A stretch of 20,030 bases of DNA from the IMG/VR virus record IMGVR_UViG_3300009520_000051; one strand, written 5' to 3'. How positions within the stretch are numbered: the first letter of the stretch is position 1; each line of letters opens with the position of its first letter. The position numbers and the translations under genes were made by a program. Positions 7,067 to 14,924 of the stretch are shown piece after piece. A model generated the notes under the pieces. It made no database searches and was not told where the DNA came from. It was given only the letters and a program-made list of their open reading frames with translations. The stretch is from a virus.

Positions 7067-7396
7067 TTACGGGCAGACCGCCTGGTCGTAGCCCTCGTCC
7101 TTGCACTCATGATGCAGAAGGTGGTCTTCGCACTTCTCGCCGGTCTTCATGAACATGACCTCGCAGACTTCGTTCCCGACGCGCACATACCTCTTCGCGG
7201 GTTTGGGCGGGTTCACGATGACGAGGACGACCACGACCCAGATCGGCGATAGGACGATCAGGAGCTGCATCCAGTACGGCATCCAGCGTGGAAAGGCGTC
7301 AGGATCGGGCCGATGGCAGAGGCACGTCTGCTTGCAAGGACAGTTTCGTTCCCTCTCTTCTCCGCGCTCTCGTGCGCGTCTCAGCATACCGAGCAT
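7067..7396 (-). CDS. Cys-rich membrane protein, 109 aa, with one TM segment (WMQLLIVLSPIWVVVVLVIVNP)
   Basis: Strong SD GGGGGAGG 4 nt upstream of the ATG. Hydrophobic helix plus multiple Cys. Confidence 0.55.
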   Translation of the reverse strand: MLGMLRRARERGEERERNCPCKQTCLCHRPDPDAFPRWMPYWMQLLIVLSPIWVVVVLVIVNPPKPAKRYVRVGNEVCEVMFMKTGEKCEDHLLHHECKDEGYDQAVCP

Positions 7397-7411
7397 CAGA
7401 CCTCCCCCATC

Positions 7412-7765
7412 TCAATAGGCCCGCTGCCACTCGCGCAGGTAGCAGCTCGCCTCGGGCGCCGACAGCGCGCTGTCCGTGAGCGGCGTGATGCGGACCACGA
7501 GGCCGCCGTCTTGATTTTTGACGTCCATCACGAAGTTCATCGCAGCGCTCGTGCGACCGTCCTGGAACTTGATCCAACCCGTCCAAGCGTGGTGCCCACG
7601 ACCCCGAGCGTAGGTCATGGAGGAAAACTTGGCGTCCGGGTGGAAGCACTGGAGGAGGCGGGGCCCGAAACCCTCCGCGTCGTCGGCGTGGACGGACGCC
7701 GGCAGCGCGACAACGGCCGCCGCAAGGAGGAAGGAGACCAGGAACTTTTTGCCGGTGTTCGTCAT
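7412..7765 (-). CDS. Secreted hypothetical protein, 117 aa, with N-terminal signal peptide (MTNTGKKFLVSFLLAAAVVALPASVHA)
   Basis: Signal-peptide-like N-terminus. ATG abuts the stop of the RHH gene. Confidence 0.55.
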   Translation of the reverse strand: MTNTGKKFLVSFLLAAAVVALPASVHADDAEGFGPRLLQCFHPDAKFSSMTYARGRGHHAWTGWIKFQDGRTSAAMNFVMDVKNQDGGLVVRITPLTDSALSAPEASCYLREWQRAY

Positions 7766-7990
7766 TTAGCTTTTGTAGCTACGTTGTAGCCCGCCGTCAA
7801 GACCGTCAAGACTCACTTTCAACCGCATCGCGTGACGGATCCACTCCGAGACCGTAGTGAAATTAGCTTTCTGTGCCGCGCACTGCCACTTCTCCCACTC
7901 GTCCTCCGAGACGCGGACCCTCACGGTGTGATCGAGGTTCGCTCTCCCGCTCTTGGGCTCGCTCTTGGGCTCTTTAGCCTTCTTCCGCAT
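7766..7990 (-). CDS. Ribbon-helix-helix (CopG/MobC-like) DNA-binding protein, 74 aa; an alternative start at 8053 is possible
   Basis: HTVRVRVSEDEWEKWQCAAQKANFTTVSEWIRHAMRL fits a beta-strand then helix, loop, helix RHH pattern. GC3 is about 75%, against about 55% for the antisense ORF 7832..8077. Confidence 0.55.
   Translation of the reverse strand: MRKKAKEPKSEPKSGRANLDHTVRVRVSEDEWEKWQCAAQKANFTTVSEWIRHAMRLKVSLDGLDGGLQRSYKS
7771..7790 (+). repeat. 20-bp element copy 1: TTTTGTAGCTACGTTGTAGC (contains palindrome GTAGCTAC)
   Basis: Exact match to the copy at 8070..8089. It encodes the C-terminal LQRSYKS* of the RHH gene. Confidence 0.8.
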
Positions 7991-7993
7991 GCG

Positions 7994-8013
7994 CCACAAC
8001 GTAGCCACAAAAA
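7994..8013 (-). repeat. 20-bp element copy 3 (inverted, 17-18/20): TTTTTGTGGCTACGTTGTGG on the minus strand, 3 nt upstream of the RHH ATG
   Basis: Read directly: the plus strand is CCACAACGTAGCCACAAAAA. Confidence 0.6.
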
Positions 8014-8069
8014 TACCGCCCCGCAAGACCCGGCTCGAGATAATTGCCCGCACCCCTGGCGCCCTCAGA

Positions 8070-8089
8070 TTTTGTAGCTACGTTGTAGC
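8070..8089 (+). repeat. 20-bp element copy 2: TTTTGTAGCTACGTTGTAGC, in the divergent intergenic region
   Basis: Exact 20/20 match to 7771..7790. It is followed by the palindrome GACCGCAAAGCGGTC at 8096..8110. Confidence 0.8.
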
Positions 8090-8126
8090 TCGACAGACCG
8101 CAAAGCGGTCAGGAAAGACGGAAAAC

Positions 8127-8405
8127 ATGATCATCCAGAAAGCATTCCTCGCCCTCGCCATGGTGGCAGGCGTCTCGGCAGTCACGCTCACCCCCGCCGT
8201 CGCGGAGGCTCGAGGCGGCCATGGCGGTGGCCACTTCAGTGGCGACCATTCCAGCAGCGCCCATTACGGCGCAGGTCACTCTTACGGCGGGCACTACGGC
8301 TATCGCACTCCCTACGGCTACGGCTACCGTCCGTACTTCAGCGGCTGCGCGTACGTGACGGCGTGGGGTCAGTGCGTCCGGCCAGGCTACCGATACGGCT
8401 GGTAA
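8127..8405 (+). CDS. Secreted Gly/Tyr/His-rich small protein, 92 aa: signal peptide MIIQKAFLALAMVAGVSAVTLTPAVAEA then GHGGGHFSGDHSSSAHYGAGHSYGGHYGYRTPYGYGYRPYFSGCAYVTAWGQCVRPGYRYGW
   Basis: Internal ATG of track ORF 7953..8405 with a purine-rich SD (GGAAAGACGGAAAAC). High GC3. Divergent from the RHH gene. Confidence 0.55.
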   Translation: MIIQKAFLALAMVAGVSAVTLTPAVAEARGGHGGGHFSGDHSSSAHYGAGHSYGGHYGYRTPYGYGYRPYFSGCAYVTAWGQCVRPGYRYGW

Positions 8406-8490
8406 ATCGACGTCGATCCCAAAGAAAAAACGCAACAACCGGTGCTCGCCACCCCCTGTTAAGAGTAGAGGCTCTGACGGATAGCTCCGC

Positions 8491-8895
8491 TCATCCCGAT
8501 TCCTTCTCCGTAACCAACGGCAACTCGATATTTTTCCGGCGCTCGATCTCGAGGAGGATGGCAGCGTGGGCTCGCACCCAGTCACCCTTGCGCATCAGCC
8601 TGCAACTCATGAAGATTGGGTAACCGTTGACCGAGCGCGGCCCCTGCGCGTCGAGGTACTCGTAGACGACCCCGATGTCCGCGATGTCCTCGGGCGTGTA
8701 GCCGTCGAGCGCGCCAAACGCGAGGGGCATGAAGATCGTCTTCATCATGTCGAGGTCACTCGCGGGTAAATGGTTCGACGTGAAGATCTGCCCGCTCGCG
8801 AAGTCGTCCACGAACTTGCGCAGCTCGTCGTCCGTGAGGCGCACGAGCTTGTGGTCGCCCGGCTTCACCTGCTCTTTGGTCTCGCTCGCGCTCAC
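8491..8895 (-). CDS. Hypothetical protein, 134 aa; last gene of array A
   Basis: ATG at 8895 overlaps the upstream stop (ATGA). Convergent with 8127..8405. Confidence 0.55.
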   Translation of the reverse strand: MSASETKEQVKPGDHKLVRLTDDELRKFVDDFASGQIFTSNHLPASDLDMMKTIFMPLAFGALDGYTPEDIADIGVVYEYLDAQGPRSVNGYPIFMSCRLMRKGDWVRAHAAILLEIERRKNIELPLVTEKESG

Positions 8896-12849: not shown

Positions 12850-13205
12850 CCACGCTCTCTTTCCGGCGCAACGAGGTTCTCCCACGCGCCCTCCTTGTAG
12901 ATCGTCGCCTCGACGTCCCACGGACCCGCCGTGTAGCAGCCGCCGGCCACGAAGACCTTCTTGCCCTTGTACTTCACGAGCGCGCCACACGACCCGTTGC
13001 CCTGCGCGTAGGCCGTCGCGTGCATCTTGATGTCGAGGCCGCGACCCTTGTATTTCATCGTGAGCGCCGAGTGCATGGGGCTCGACTCCTTGGCTACGAC
13101 TTCGCCCTTCTGATCGACGAACTTGAGCACGCGGAGCATGAGCGCGTCGAGCGGCTTGGCCTCCTCGTCCCCCTCGTCCTCATCACGCATGCGACTCCTC
13201 GCCAT
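12846..13205 (-). CDS. Hypothetical protein, 119 aa, with acidic N-terminus
   Basis: Track ORF; it overlaps the 3' end of the AAA gene by 23 nt. Confidence 0.5.
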   Translation of the reverse strand: MARSRMRDEDEGDEEAKPLDALMLRVLKFVDQKGEVVAKESSPMHSALTMKYKGRGLDIKMHATAYAQGNGSCGALVKYKGKKVFVAGGCYTAGPWDVEATIYKEGAWENLVAPERERG

Positions 13206-14853
13206 CGCTCGTCTTGAGGTCGAGAAAGTTCGACACGTACTTGAACAGCTCGAGATCGATCTTGTTCTTCTTCGGGTCGCGCTTGTGGAGCATCCGGCCG
13301 AGCTTCAAGAGGTTCTTGACGTTCCTGCCCGAGATCTTCGGGAACTCGGTCACGAGCTGCCGGATCGTCCCGACCGGCATCTCCATCCCGTACTGCTTCG
13401 AGAGGACGCCCCAGATCTCGACGAGCTGGTCTCGCGTCGGCAGCGCGTACCGGATCCACGCGGTCGCGCGGCTCATGATGGCGTCGTCGATCACGGTCGC
13501 CCGGTTCGACGTGAGGAAGAGCACGCCGCGGTAGTGCTCGAGGACGCGGAGGAACACCCCCACGATAGCGTTCTGCTGGATGTCCGAACCGCGCGCGTGC
13601 ACGTAGACGTCCGCCTCGTCGATGAGCAGGATCGCTCGCCAACGCGACGCGCGCGTGAGCACCGTGAGAAGCTCCTTCTCGACCTTGGACTCCTCCGTGC
13701 CGAGCTGCGAACACTGGACGACGTAGAGCGGCTTCTTGATCTCCTCGGCGAACACCTCCGCGGTGAGCGTTTTGCCGGTGCCGGGCGGGCCGGTCGCGAT
13801 CACGATCGTGCCGCCTGTCTTGCCCTTGATGATATCCTCCATCACCTCCGAGGATCCCTCGACGAGGATCGTAATGAGGGATTTCGTCTGCTCGTCGAGC
13901 ACGAGCTTCGAGGCTGCAGTCTTGTCGTACTCGTACGGCGTGAGGTTCCGGACGTGGATGAGCATGAACTCGTGCCGACCGAGGTCGAACACTTTGACAT
14001 AAGGGTGGACGGGCTTGGCAACGTCGCCATCCTCGTCTTCGTCGTCGTCATCGTCGTCGTCGCTCTTGCCACCCTTCTTCCAGAAGGAAGCGTCGGCCGT
14101 GGTCCCATCCTCGCGATTACGGCTACTCGATCGCTCCTCCTCTTCATCACCGTCGTCCATCACGACGGTAGCCGCTTGCCCCTCCCGCTCCATCGCGATC
14201 TCTTGGTAGCTGTAGTAGCTCTCGGGGTAGCCGGTCCCGACCGCCCTGAACTGCGCACCCGTCAGCGGCGCGAGCCTCTTGTAAAGCTCGATGTCCTCCA
14301 TGTACACGGCGACCGCCTCGTCCGTCTCGAGGTGGTAGCCCTTCGCGGCGAGGATCTCGGGCACCGTCTTGCCCAGGTCCGGGACGTGGAACCTGAGCGA
14401 CTCGCCGTCCGAATACCCGCGCGTCACAGCCTCGAACCTCACGGTCACGTTGGCCTGGCTGCCACTCCGCGGATCCGCCTTGTTGTACGCGATGTGCGCG
14501 ACGAAGTACGGCACGGCGAACCCGTCCGACTCATCGTGAAAGAGCCACTTGTTCGGGGAAGGCTCGACGTACGCCCGGAGGGCCGCTGCGAAGGGCTCGA
14601 GCTTGCCGACCTTGTTGCCGCTCGGATCCGCACGGAGCTTCCTGTAAGAGGTGATCTTCCGGCAGAGAGTCTTGCCCGTCCCGTCGTCATTCTCGTCCTT
14701 CGAGGCGCGCGCGTGGACGGCTTCGAGCTGTTCGTCCGTGAATCTCCCGGCGTCGATGTCGATGAACTGGTCCGCGTCGCGGTACGACACCGCCCGCCTG
14801 ATGGCTTCGGTCTTGACGTCCTTCAGGTACCGGACGCGGATGTGCAGGTTCAC
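13183..14853 (-). CDS. AAA+ ATPase, ~556 aa: unknown ~300-aa N-terminal domain, acidic linker (DDDDDDDEDEDGD), C-terminal classical AAA domain. Start likely GTG at 14853, not the track's ATG at 15027.
   Basis: Walker A GPPGTGKTLT, Walker B ILLIDEADVY, sensor-1 LTSNRA. The first 58 codons of the track ORF are Arg-rich and overlap the upstream gene in another frame. Confidence 0.75.
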   Translation of the reverse strand: MNLHIRVRYLKDVKTEAIRRAVSYRDADQFIDIDAGRFTDEQLEAVHARASKDENDDGTGKTLCRKITSYRKLRADPSGNKVGKLEPFAAALRAYVEPSPNKWLFHDESDGFAVPYFVAHIAYNKADPRSGSQANVTVRFEAVTRGYSDGESLRFHVPDLGKTVPEILAAKGYHLETDEAVAVYMEDIELYKRLAPLTGAQFRAVGTGYPESYYSYQEIAMEREGQAATVVMDDGDEEEERSSSRNREDGTTADASFWKKGGKSDDDDDDDEDEDGDVAKPVHPYVKVFDLGRHEFMLIHVRNLTPYEYDKTAASKLVLDEQTKSLITILVEGSSEVMEDIIKGKTGGTIVIATGPPGTGKTLTAEVFAEEIKKPLYVVQCSQLGTEESKVEKELLTVLTRASRWRAILLIDEADVYVHARGSDIQQNAIVGVFLRVLEHYRGVLFLTSNRATVIDDAIMSRATAWIRYALPTRDQLVEIWGVLSKQYGMEMPVGTIRQLVTEFPKISGRNVKNLLKLGRMLHKRDPKKNKIDLELFKYVSNFLDLKTSDGEESHA

Positions 14854-14924
14854 GACGTTCTCTCCCCGATCGCCGCCACGATGACGGAGACGACGAGGAT
14901 CGCCATGTAGACGATCGCGCTCAT
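14850..14924 (-). CDS. 24-aa hydrophobic micro-peptide MSAIVYMAILVVSVIVAAIGERTS (single TM helix)
   Basis: GGAGGA SD 7 nt upstream. Its ATG overlaps the stop of 14924..15205, and its TGA overlaps the GTG that probably starts the AAA gene. GC3 is about 95%. Confidence 0.35.
   Translation of the reverse strand: MSAIVYMAILVVSVIVAAIGERTS

Follow-up and report, generated by a model that had tools for sequence, protein, structure and literature searches.

Three 20-bp sites in and around a small ribbon-helix-helix gene as candidate operators of a three-promoter switch in a probable jumbo phage

What protein, if any, reads a 20-bp sequence that occurs three times in and around one small regulatory gene? 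The question is raised by IMG/VR virus record IMGVR_UViG_3300009520_000051, which we analyzed as a single stretch of 20,030 nucleotides (hereafter, the window, meaning the whole of this DNA) and which is in itself a complete JGI contig. Almost all genes of the window lie on the minus strand, and one of them encodes a 74-amino-acid (aa) putative repressor of the ribbon-helix-helix (RHH) type (7766..7990, minus strand, from ATG 7990 to TAA 7766), among whose surroundings the three 20-mers are found. An initial annotation, made from the sequence alone, had read these copies either as a set of operators through which the RHH protein controls itself and a divergent gene or as att-like ends of a miniature integrated element. 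The results presented here support the operator reading: the sites are locus-specific and conserved, occur together with the RHH gene, and overlap predicted promoters. Judged from this sequence evidence, it is likely that the three 20-mers are operators of the RHH protein encoded among them. The original proposal would also need to be extended by a third target, a 117-aa protein gene that appears to be controlled through an internal promoter under one of the sites.

The three sites, named A (8070-8089), B (7993-8012), and C (7771-7790), share a common make-up. Sites A and C are exact plus-strand copies of TTTTGTAGCTACGTTGTAGC, identical at 20 of 20 positions and 299 bp apart, and a direct match bore out both positions as first annotated. 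Site B (TTTTGTGGCTACGTTGTGGC, minus strand) is an inverted copy that matches at 18 of 20 positions; the initial annotation had recognized it as such, but its placement at 7994-8013 was off by one, and the gap to the RHH ATG (A at 7990) is 2 nt rather than 3 nt. The copies had also been described as bracketing the RHH gene, which does not hold for site C, since it lies within the final eight codons of the RHH open reading frame (ORF; 7990 to 7766). From site C, a 5-nt gap leads to the ATG (7765) of the 117-aa protein gene (7412..7765, minus strand). On the other side, site A lies 37 nt from the ATG (8127) of a divergent gene for a 92-aa Gly/Tyr-rich protein (8127..8405, plus strand), exactly as had been stated. 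Every 20-mer consists of a pair of direct TTGTRGC heptads 11 bp apart (TTGTAGC twice in site A), and six of the eight such heptads in the 20-kb window, where 2.2 are expected, fall within sites A-C. Each copy also contains the -10-like TACGTT (8079-8084 in site A) that had been claimed for it; the perfect palindrome GTAGCTAC, claimed for all copies as well, is absent from the inverted copy, GTGGCTAC.

The 20-mers are local to the RHH locus and not dispersed. No further copy occurs in the window when up to three mismatches are allowed, and 100 dinucleotide-preserving shuffles of the sequence yielded no 20-mer match. Exact-protein look-ups retrieved 16 near-identical contigs from many metagenome samples, which differ by just one single-nucleotide polymorphism in the 1.1-kb region, and these contigs, read over up to ~19 kb each, showed exactly three exact 18-mer matches. 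The 18-mer found no match in IMG/VR, and its degenerate form gave 64 single-copy matches in GTDB (one genome per species, 596 Gb), compared to ~69 expected by chance. Scans of metagenome and viral sequences, made with the 117-aa family and with a degenerate form of the site, gave chance matches only, none of which encoded a relative, and the searchable literature held nothing on the motif beyond chance primer matches. The genome-wide search that had been suggested as a check on the two initial readings thus found the sites to be locus-specific, and high copy number in unrelated contexts was not seen. As a separate observation, about half of the 64 GTDB matches (L001-L064; e.g., L028, 6811-6828) come from Saccharibacteria/TM7-type genomes and resemble one shared sequence; four of these loci gave no RNA family in Rfam, and the matches are unrelated to the RHH locus.

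We then compared the locus with its diverged relatives. Among 5.8 billion proteins, only two diverged relatives of the RHH protein were found (P0002 and P0003, 72-80% identical), and their contigs, L081 and L082, carry the same three-gene module and the three sites with positions and orientations unchanged. Site A matches its counterparts at 19 of 20 positions in L081 and at 18 of 20 in L082, with 17 of 20 columns invariant in the three-way alignment; site B, in the same place in both contigs, reads TTTTGTAGCTACGATGTAGC; and 19 of the 20 columns of site C are invariant across the three lineages. Overall, 85-95% of site columns are invariant in this alignment, compared to 71% for the RHH coding DNA and 40% for the 57-nt spacer between sites A and B, where TCTTGCGG is the only conserved block and supplies a third of the invariant columns. 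The center-to-center distance between sites A and B is 77 bp in all three lineages. Within a single relative, sites A and C agree at 19 of 20 positions in L081 and at 17 of 20 in L082. The palindrome GACCGCAAAGCGGTC, present at 8096-8110 (plus strand) as initially reported, lies in the predicted 5' untranslated region of the Gly/Tyr-rich gene and inside a 22-nt insertion of the window lineage, with the 22 columns that hold it gapped in both L081 and L082. Because it is lineage-specific and absent from the relatives, this palindrome falls outside the conserved switch.

At site C, the DNA and its translation can be told apart. The site is read as GLQRSYKS-stop in the window but, in a different frame, as YNVATKTK-stop in L081 and L082, a 22-nt length difference upstream having changed the frame over it. 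Since 19 of 20 bases are kept despite this frame change, selection acts on the DNA of site C and not on the peptide. Two tandem duplications, both on the minus strand, are private to the RHH gene of the window: a 12-bp unit (GAGCCCAAGAGC, twice at 7949-7972) that yields EPKS-EPKS in the N-terminal tail, and a 9-bp unit (GTCTTGACG, twice at 7795-7812) that yields LDG-LDG and doubles the -35-like TTGACG of the candidate internal promoter described below. The latter duplication explains part of the length difference that shifts the frame over site C.

More distant loci link the sites to the RHH gene. We assembled eight lineages without it (L201/202, L203/204, and L205-L210), seven of them from a search with the 117-aa family (42-56% identity) and one from a distant homolog of the Gly/Tyr-rich protein. 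No RHH gene was found in these eight lineages and, even with five mismatches allowed, no 20-mer either, so that the sites occur in three of three RHH-carrying lineages and in none of the eight RHH-less ones. The 117-aa gene is retained in seven of the eight, and a gene for a PadR regulator, which in the window lies downstream of the 117-aa gene, in six. Because the sites follow the RHH gene in this way while PadR is present in six of eight lineages that lack them, the sites travel with the RHH gene and not with PadR.

The same comparison bears on how the RHH gene came to lie where it does. Phage morons are self-contained gene cassettes inserted between conserved phage genes. In L201/202, L208, and L209, nothing but non-coding DNA separates a 134-aa gene from the 117-aa gene that comes after it, and in none of the RHH-less lineages does a Gly/Tyr-rich gene stand beside the 117-aa gene. 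In L081 and L082, the Gly/Tyr-rich and RHH genes precede the 117-aa gene, as they also do in the window, where the 134-aa gene stands on their other side. A cassette is thus found here between genes that are adjacent in relatives, and the RHH and Gly/Tyr-rich pair appears to behave as a moron-like insertion between two conserved genes. The segment that varies among the lineages begins where the 134-aa gene ends, extends as far as the ATG of the 117-aa gene, and takes in the Gly/Tyr-rich gene. L203 also carries an IS1595-family transposase (1975-2964) ~2 kb upstream of its 117-aa gene, and its homolog of the 134-aa gene is shortened.

All three sites overlap promoter-like elements. Ahead of the RHH gene, TTGCGG (8026-8021), 17 nt, TACGTT (8003-7998), and 7 nt lead to the ATG, and site B fills the spacer and -10 of this predicted promoter (7998..8026, minus strand). 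Inside the RHH ORF, TTGACG (7800-7795), 17 nt, TACAAA (7777-7772), and 6 nt lead to ATG 7765, and site C covers the spacer and -10 of what would be an internal promoter of the 117-aa gene (7772..7800, minus strand). For the Gly/Tyr-rich gene, a weaker candidate (8056..8084, plus strand) pairs CTGGCG (8056-8061) across 17 nt with the TACGTT of site A; its -35-like hexamer, CTGGCG, recurs in L082 and is replaced by CTAGCA in L081. The relatives L081 and L082 have better versions of the other two elements, namely TACGAT in the RHH promoter and, in the same place before the 117-aa gene, TTGACA-17-TACAAA-6-ATG. A strict promoter pattern has two occurrences in the window where 0.02 would be expected, the pattern having been defined after the sites were seen. 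No Shine-Dalgarno sequence precedes the RHH or the 117-aa gene, and the mRNAs of both are probably leaderless, as judged from the short distances between the predicted -10 elements and the ATGs. Gene callers sometimes lengthen the RHH ORF to GTG 8053 (95 aa); the starts of its homologs fit ATG 7990. In the relatives, a ribosome site, AGGTGA or AGGTGG, precedes the Gly/Tyr-rich gene.

In most of the RHH-less lineages that retain the 117-aa gene, TTGCGC-17-TAYGRY-6-ATG stands before it as a conserved block that occurs once per locus (e.g., CCCTTGCGCGGGGTGTAAGGGGGCGTTACGGTGTGTTCATG) and would yield a leaderless transcript. In the window, the predicted promoters of the RHH gene and of the 117-aa gene both share this architecture, which for the RHH promoter does not in itself prove homology. 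The shared architecture is taken from the pattern scan, as a MAFFT alignment of the RHH promoter with the 117-aa promoter of the relatives misplaced the -35. The block extends over ~40 nt (CCCTTGCGCGGGGYGYAARGGGG...TAYGRY-6-ATG) in L201 (9964-10003), L203 (5030-5069), and L205 (4004-4043), and also starts at 656 in L206, 2523 in L208, and 2917 in L209, in each case directly before the 117-aa gene; a CCCTT/AAGGG inverted repeat lies over its promoter spacer. This block may be the operator of another regulator, replaced by RHH heptads in the clade of the window. Elsewhere in the window, TTGCGC-16-TACGGT occurs at 19045-19018 (minus strand), in the gap upstream of a 478-aa gene (ATG 18987), and the match of its hexamers to the 117-aa promoter of the relatives hints at a shared promoter consensus of the element or of its host.

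We also examined the evidence for the fold of the 74-aa protein. Its Pfam match to a NikA-like family (E = 6.8e-5; 23.4 bits) falls below the curated cut-off of 27, its PHROG matches to repressor and Arc-like families are weak, and its homolog in L082 has a weak precomputed match of the NikA-like kind. A profile search of 1.8 billion representatives recovered only 24 weak relatives, although several distant ones match NikA-like (31.7 bits) or RHH_1. An AlphaFold2 model built on a 16-sequence alignment, and used instead of an earlier one from three sequences (predicted local distance difference test [pLDDT] 61; no Foldseek match), reached a pLDDT of 88-96 across residues 21-60 and placed an extended segment (21-28) before two helices (29-41 and 47-65), i.e., a beta-alpha-alpha pattern. 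Most of the matches listed by Foldseek in the PDB were RHH domains, including NikR (1.3 Å over 43 residues) and, among the other top matches, MazE9, PrpA, ParD, Arc, and CopG. Aligned to the Arc sequence with hhalign, the protein was in register, at a score short of significance, and a PDB sequence search with the RHH profile turned up nothing beyond spurious matches to designed repeat proteins. HTVRVRVS, the strand predicted to read the DNA, does not vary among the three lineages that share the operators. This constancy and the 11-bp spacing of the heptads would fit an RHH dimer whose two-stranded antiparallel sheet reads the major groove at repeated subsites, the structure prediction itself being that of a monomer. 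Together, these results are suggestive of an RHH fold, which we accept from the agreement across tests and not from any single significant score.

These observations suggest how the locus might work. At each site, RHH dimers would occupy the two heptads, and RNA polymerase would thereby be blocked at all three promoters; with the heptads one helical turn (11 bp) apart, two dimers could lie next to each other on the same face of the DNA. Binding at site A would repress the divergent promoter of the Gly/Tyr-rich secreted-peptide gene, binding at site B would repress the RHH gene's own promoter and so provide autoregulation, and binding at site C would repress the internal promoter of the 117-aa secreted-protein gene.

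Several points weigh against this three-operator switch. That the RHH protein binds the 20-mers is something we infer, and the outcome of binding may be activation instead of repression. Against curated RHH sequence families, the window protein stays short of significance, and Foldseek gave E-values of ~1, though this is expected for such a short domain. The promoters are well-motivated predictions, made by eye and with a post hoc pattern: a generic sigma-70 scan of the region found nothing, the -35 candidate of the Gly/Tyr-rich gene is poor, and the -10 under site C, TACAAA, is without the usual final T. In addition, only three independent lineages carry the system, which limits the power of the comparison.

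We also considered whether the sites could have another reader or another role. They might be recognized by the PadR regulator encoded two genes downstream, by a host factor, or by an element-specific RNA polymerase or sigma factor. A -10-like hexamer within each site would suit such a reader, and an AAA ATPase encoded in the window resembles that of the jumbo phages PBS1 and AR9, whose group uses its own RNA polymerases; the tie between the RHH protein and the sites, moreover, is a comparative one. However, relative to its gene, site C points the opposite way from sites A and B, and a directional promoter element would not work in both orientations; nor does the motif lie at any other gene in the 20 kb. 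Of the eight RHH-less lineages, six encode PadR and none of these has a 20-mer, and in the RHH-less relatives the 117-aa promoter would work with no 20-mer in its sequence. Hence, we regard a different reader as unlikely. The other proposal of the initial annotation, that the direct copies are att-like or recombination ends of an RHH mini-cassette, to which may be added that they are substrates for RHH deletion, has appeal in that perfect 20/20 direct repeats lie 299 bp apart and that related elements differ in whether they have the RHH region. The comparison of orthologous loci nevertheless showed that the boundaries of presence and absence do not coincide with the 20-mers: the Gly/Tyr-rich gene belongs to the variable segment but falls outside the repeats, so that the repeats do not mark the boundaries of the segment. 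The direct copies have diverged from each other in both L081 and L082, a third copy is inverted, the motif is not dispersed, and all 16 near-identical contigs are intact, with no excised or empty form among them. Pfam and PHROG scans of ~20 larger ORFs of the window, the smaller ones not all having been scanned, revealed no recombinase family. The idea of a mini-element with att-like ends thus goes unsupported, given these boundaries, the non-identical copies of the relatives, and the lack of an empty variant, and we consider it very improbable.

The sites could also act at the RNA level, as B and C can pair into a 20-bp long-range stem around the RHH ORF that might serve processing or translational control. 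Both differences between B and C in the window are A-to-G changes that would leave G-U pairs on the RHH sense strand; the same stem in L081 and L082 instead acquires A-A and A-C mismatches with no compensatory changes, and its covariation score does not exceed that of shuffles. Transcription starting at the ATG would, furthermore, leave site B out of the RNA, site A would have no partner role in such a stem, and Rfam gave no match over 7300-8600. There is, in our judgment, scarcely any chance that this is how the sites act. A type II toxin-antitoxin operon was likewise tried as an explanation of the locus and rejected: the 117-aa protein is signal-peptide-like, matches no toxin or defense family, and occurs without an RHH gene in seven lineages.

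A tentative history can also be proposed, in which a regulator-bearing moron has rewired a conserved phage gene. The RHH cassette may have captured the leaderless promoter that the 117-aa gene originally used, exchanging the spacer element found in relatives (CCCTTGCGCGGGG..AAGGGG) for RHH heptads, and a second leaderless promoter with its operator may have been rebuilt inside the last codons of the repressor, where it has stayed constant across a frame change. One repressor would then time the release of two secreted proteins, one of them the unusual Gly/Tyr/His-rich peptide, from a jumbo-phage-like element. We offer this scenario as possible, and as less probable than not.

Parts of this arrangement recall known systems. 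In the immI region of phage P22, Arc and Mnt are small RHH repressors, with an operator of ~21 bp at which two dimers bind ~11 bp apart; the Arc operator overlaps divergent promoters, and Arc represses both its own transcript and the opposite gene. The present locus resembles that of Arc in combining a phage RHH protein with a 20-bp site, an 11-bp subsite spacing, and divergent promoters, the promoters here being predicted. In contrast to the single Arc operator with its inverted, pseudo-symmetric subsites, there would be three operators built of direct heptads, and one of them would lie inside the coding sequence of the repressor and serve an internal promoter. The omega protein of plasmid pSM19035 is a single RHH protein that acts at three promoters through 7-bp heptads in direct or inverted orientation. 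One RHH protein may similarly serve three promoters through heptads in either orientation here; the omega heptads (WATCACW), however, are contiguous, with a 7-bp period and in arrays of 7-10, while each site of this locus has two heptads 11 bp apart, and contiguous arrays of the omega type were not found. With CopG and MetJ repressors and RHH antitoxins such as ParD, MazE9, and PrpA, the protein shares its predicted fold, a putative operator at its own promoter, and a gene directly downstream. Unlike the situation with RHH antitoxins, that downstream gene, encoding the 117-aa protein, belongs to no toxin family and also occurs without the RHH gene. Finally, like morons, the RHH and Gly/Tyr-rich pair is present in one clade, absent from relatives, and equipped with promoter-like elements of its own, although no clear terminator was identified for the cassette; unlike morons, it brings its own repressor and would put a resident downstream gene under that repressor.

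The 117-aa protein has a signal-peptide-like N-terminus (..LPASVHA/DD), and its gene directly abuts the RHH gene with no gap. It is the conserved gene of the locus, with homologs of 42-76% identity in many related contigs, some of them RHH-less, and it matched nothing in Pfam, PADLOC, or NCBIfam. The 92-aa protein also begins with a signal-peptide-like segment, followed by a Gly/Tyr/His-rich body with two Cys residues; its gene is the sole plus-strand gene nearby, and its family comprises only four clusters among the 5.8 billion proteins searched. When PADLOC and NCBIfam were run on six local proteins, PadR alone was matched. PadR and a Cys-rich 109-aa protein with one hydrophobic span are encoded on the minus strand downstream of the 117-aa gene (6688-7110 and 7067-7396, respectively). 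The best NCBIfam match of PadR, padR_acidobact, is sub-threshold and is a possible hint of an acidobacterial host. In most relatives, the 117-aa and PadR genes recur together, usually with a gene in between that encodes a ~100-aa protein; that protein could not be shown to be homologous to the 109-aa one. This neighborhood suggests a small, envelope-directed gene set.

The element that carries the locus is probably a jumbo phage. At the DNA level, a megablast search with the entire window found no match in phage and plasmid collections, and no structural gene was seen, so the assignment is drawn from other features. Two contigs that carry related loci, of 264 and 279 kb, consist of long one-directional arrays of small genes of no assigned function, and the AAA ATPase (13183-15027, minus strand) shows 35% identity, across 88% of its length, with a protein from the Bacillus jumbo phages PBS1 and AR9; this ATPase and the 264-279 kb relatives are the main clue to a jumbo phage. 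The ATPase also matches phrog_29662 ('ATP-dependent protease') end to end (E = 2e-89). The window further holds part of a gene for an 863-870-aa protein that matches Pfam MVP_shoulder (major vault protein) and, faintly, Vault_3. This protein is conserved in related large phage-like elements (window 1-1821, minus strand, running off the start; L065 14604-17216; L201 13131-15722).

The locus presents a compact and directly testable module of one 74-aa protein, three 20-bp sites, and three targets, from a family of large uncultured elements whose genes are almost all without known function. As a switch, it is of a familiar kind and leaves our knowledge of RHH repressors unchanged. If the operators act as proposed, it would show that an inserted cassette can place a resident gene under its own repressor, and that coding sequence can house an operator and promoter of which the DNA, and not the encoded peptide, is conserved. 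What is most unusual about this module is the frame-independent conservation of a putative operator and promoter in coding DNA, together with the apparent capture of a resident leaderless gene by a repressor-bearing cassette.

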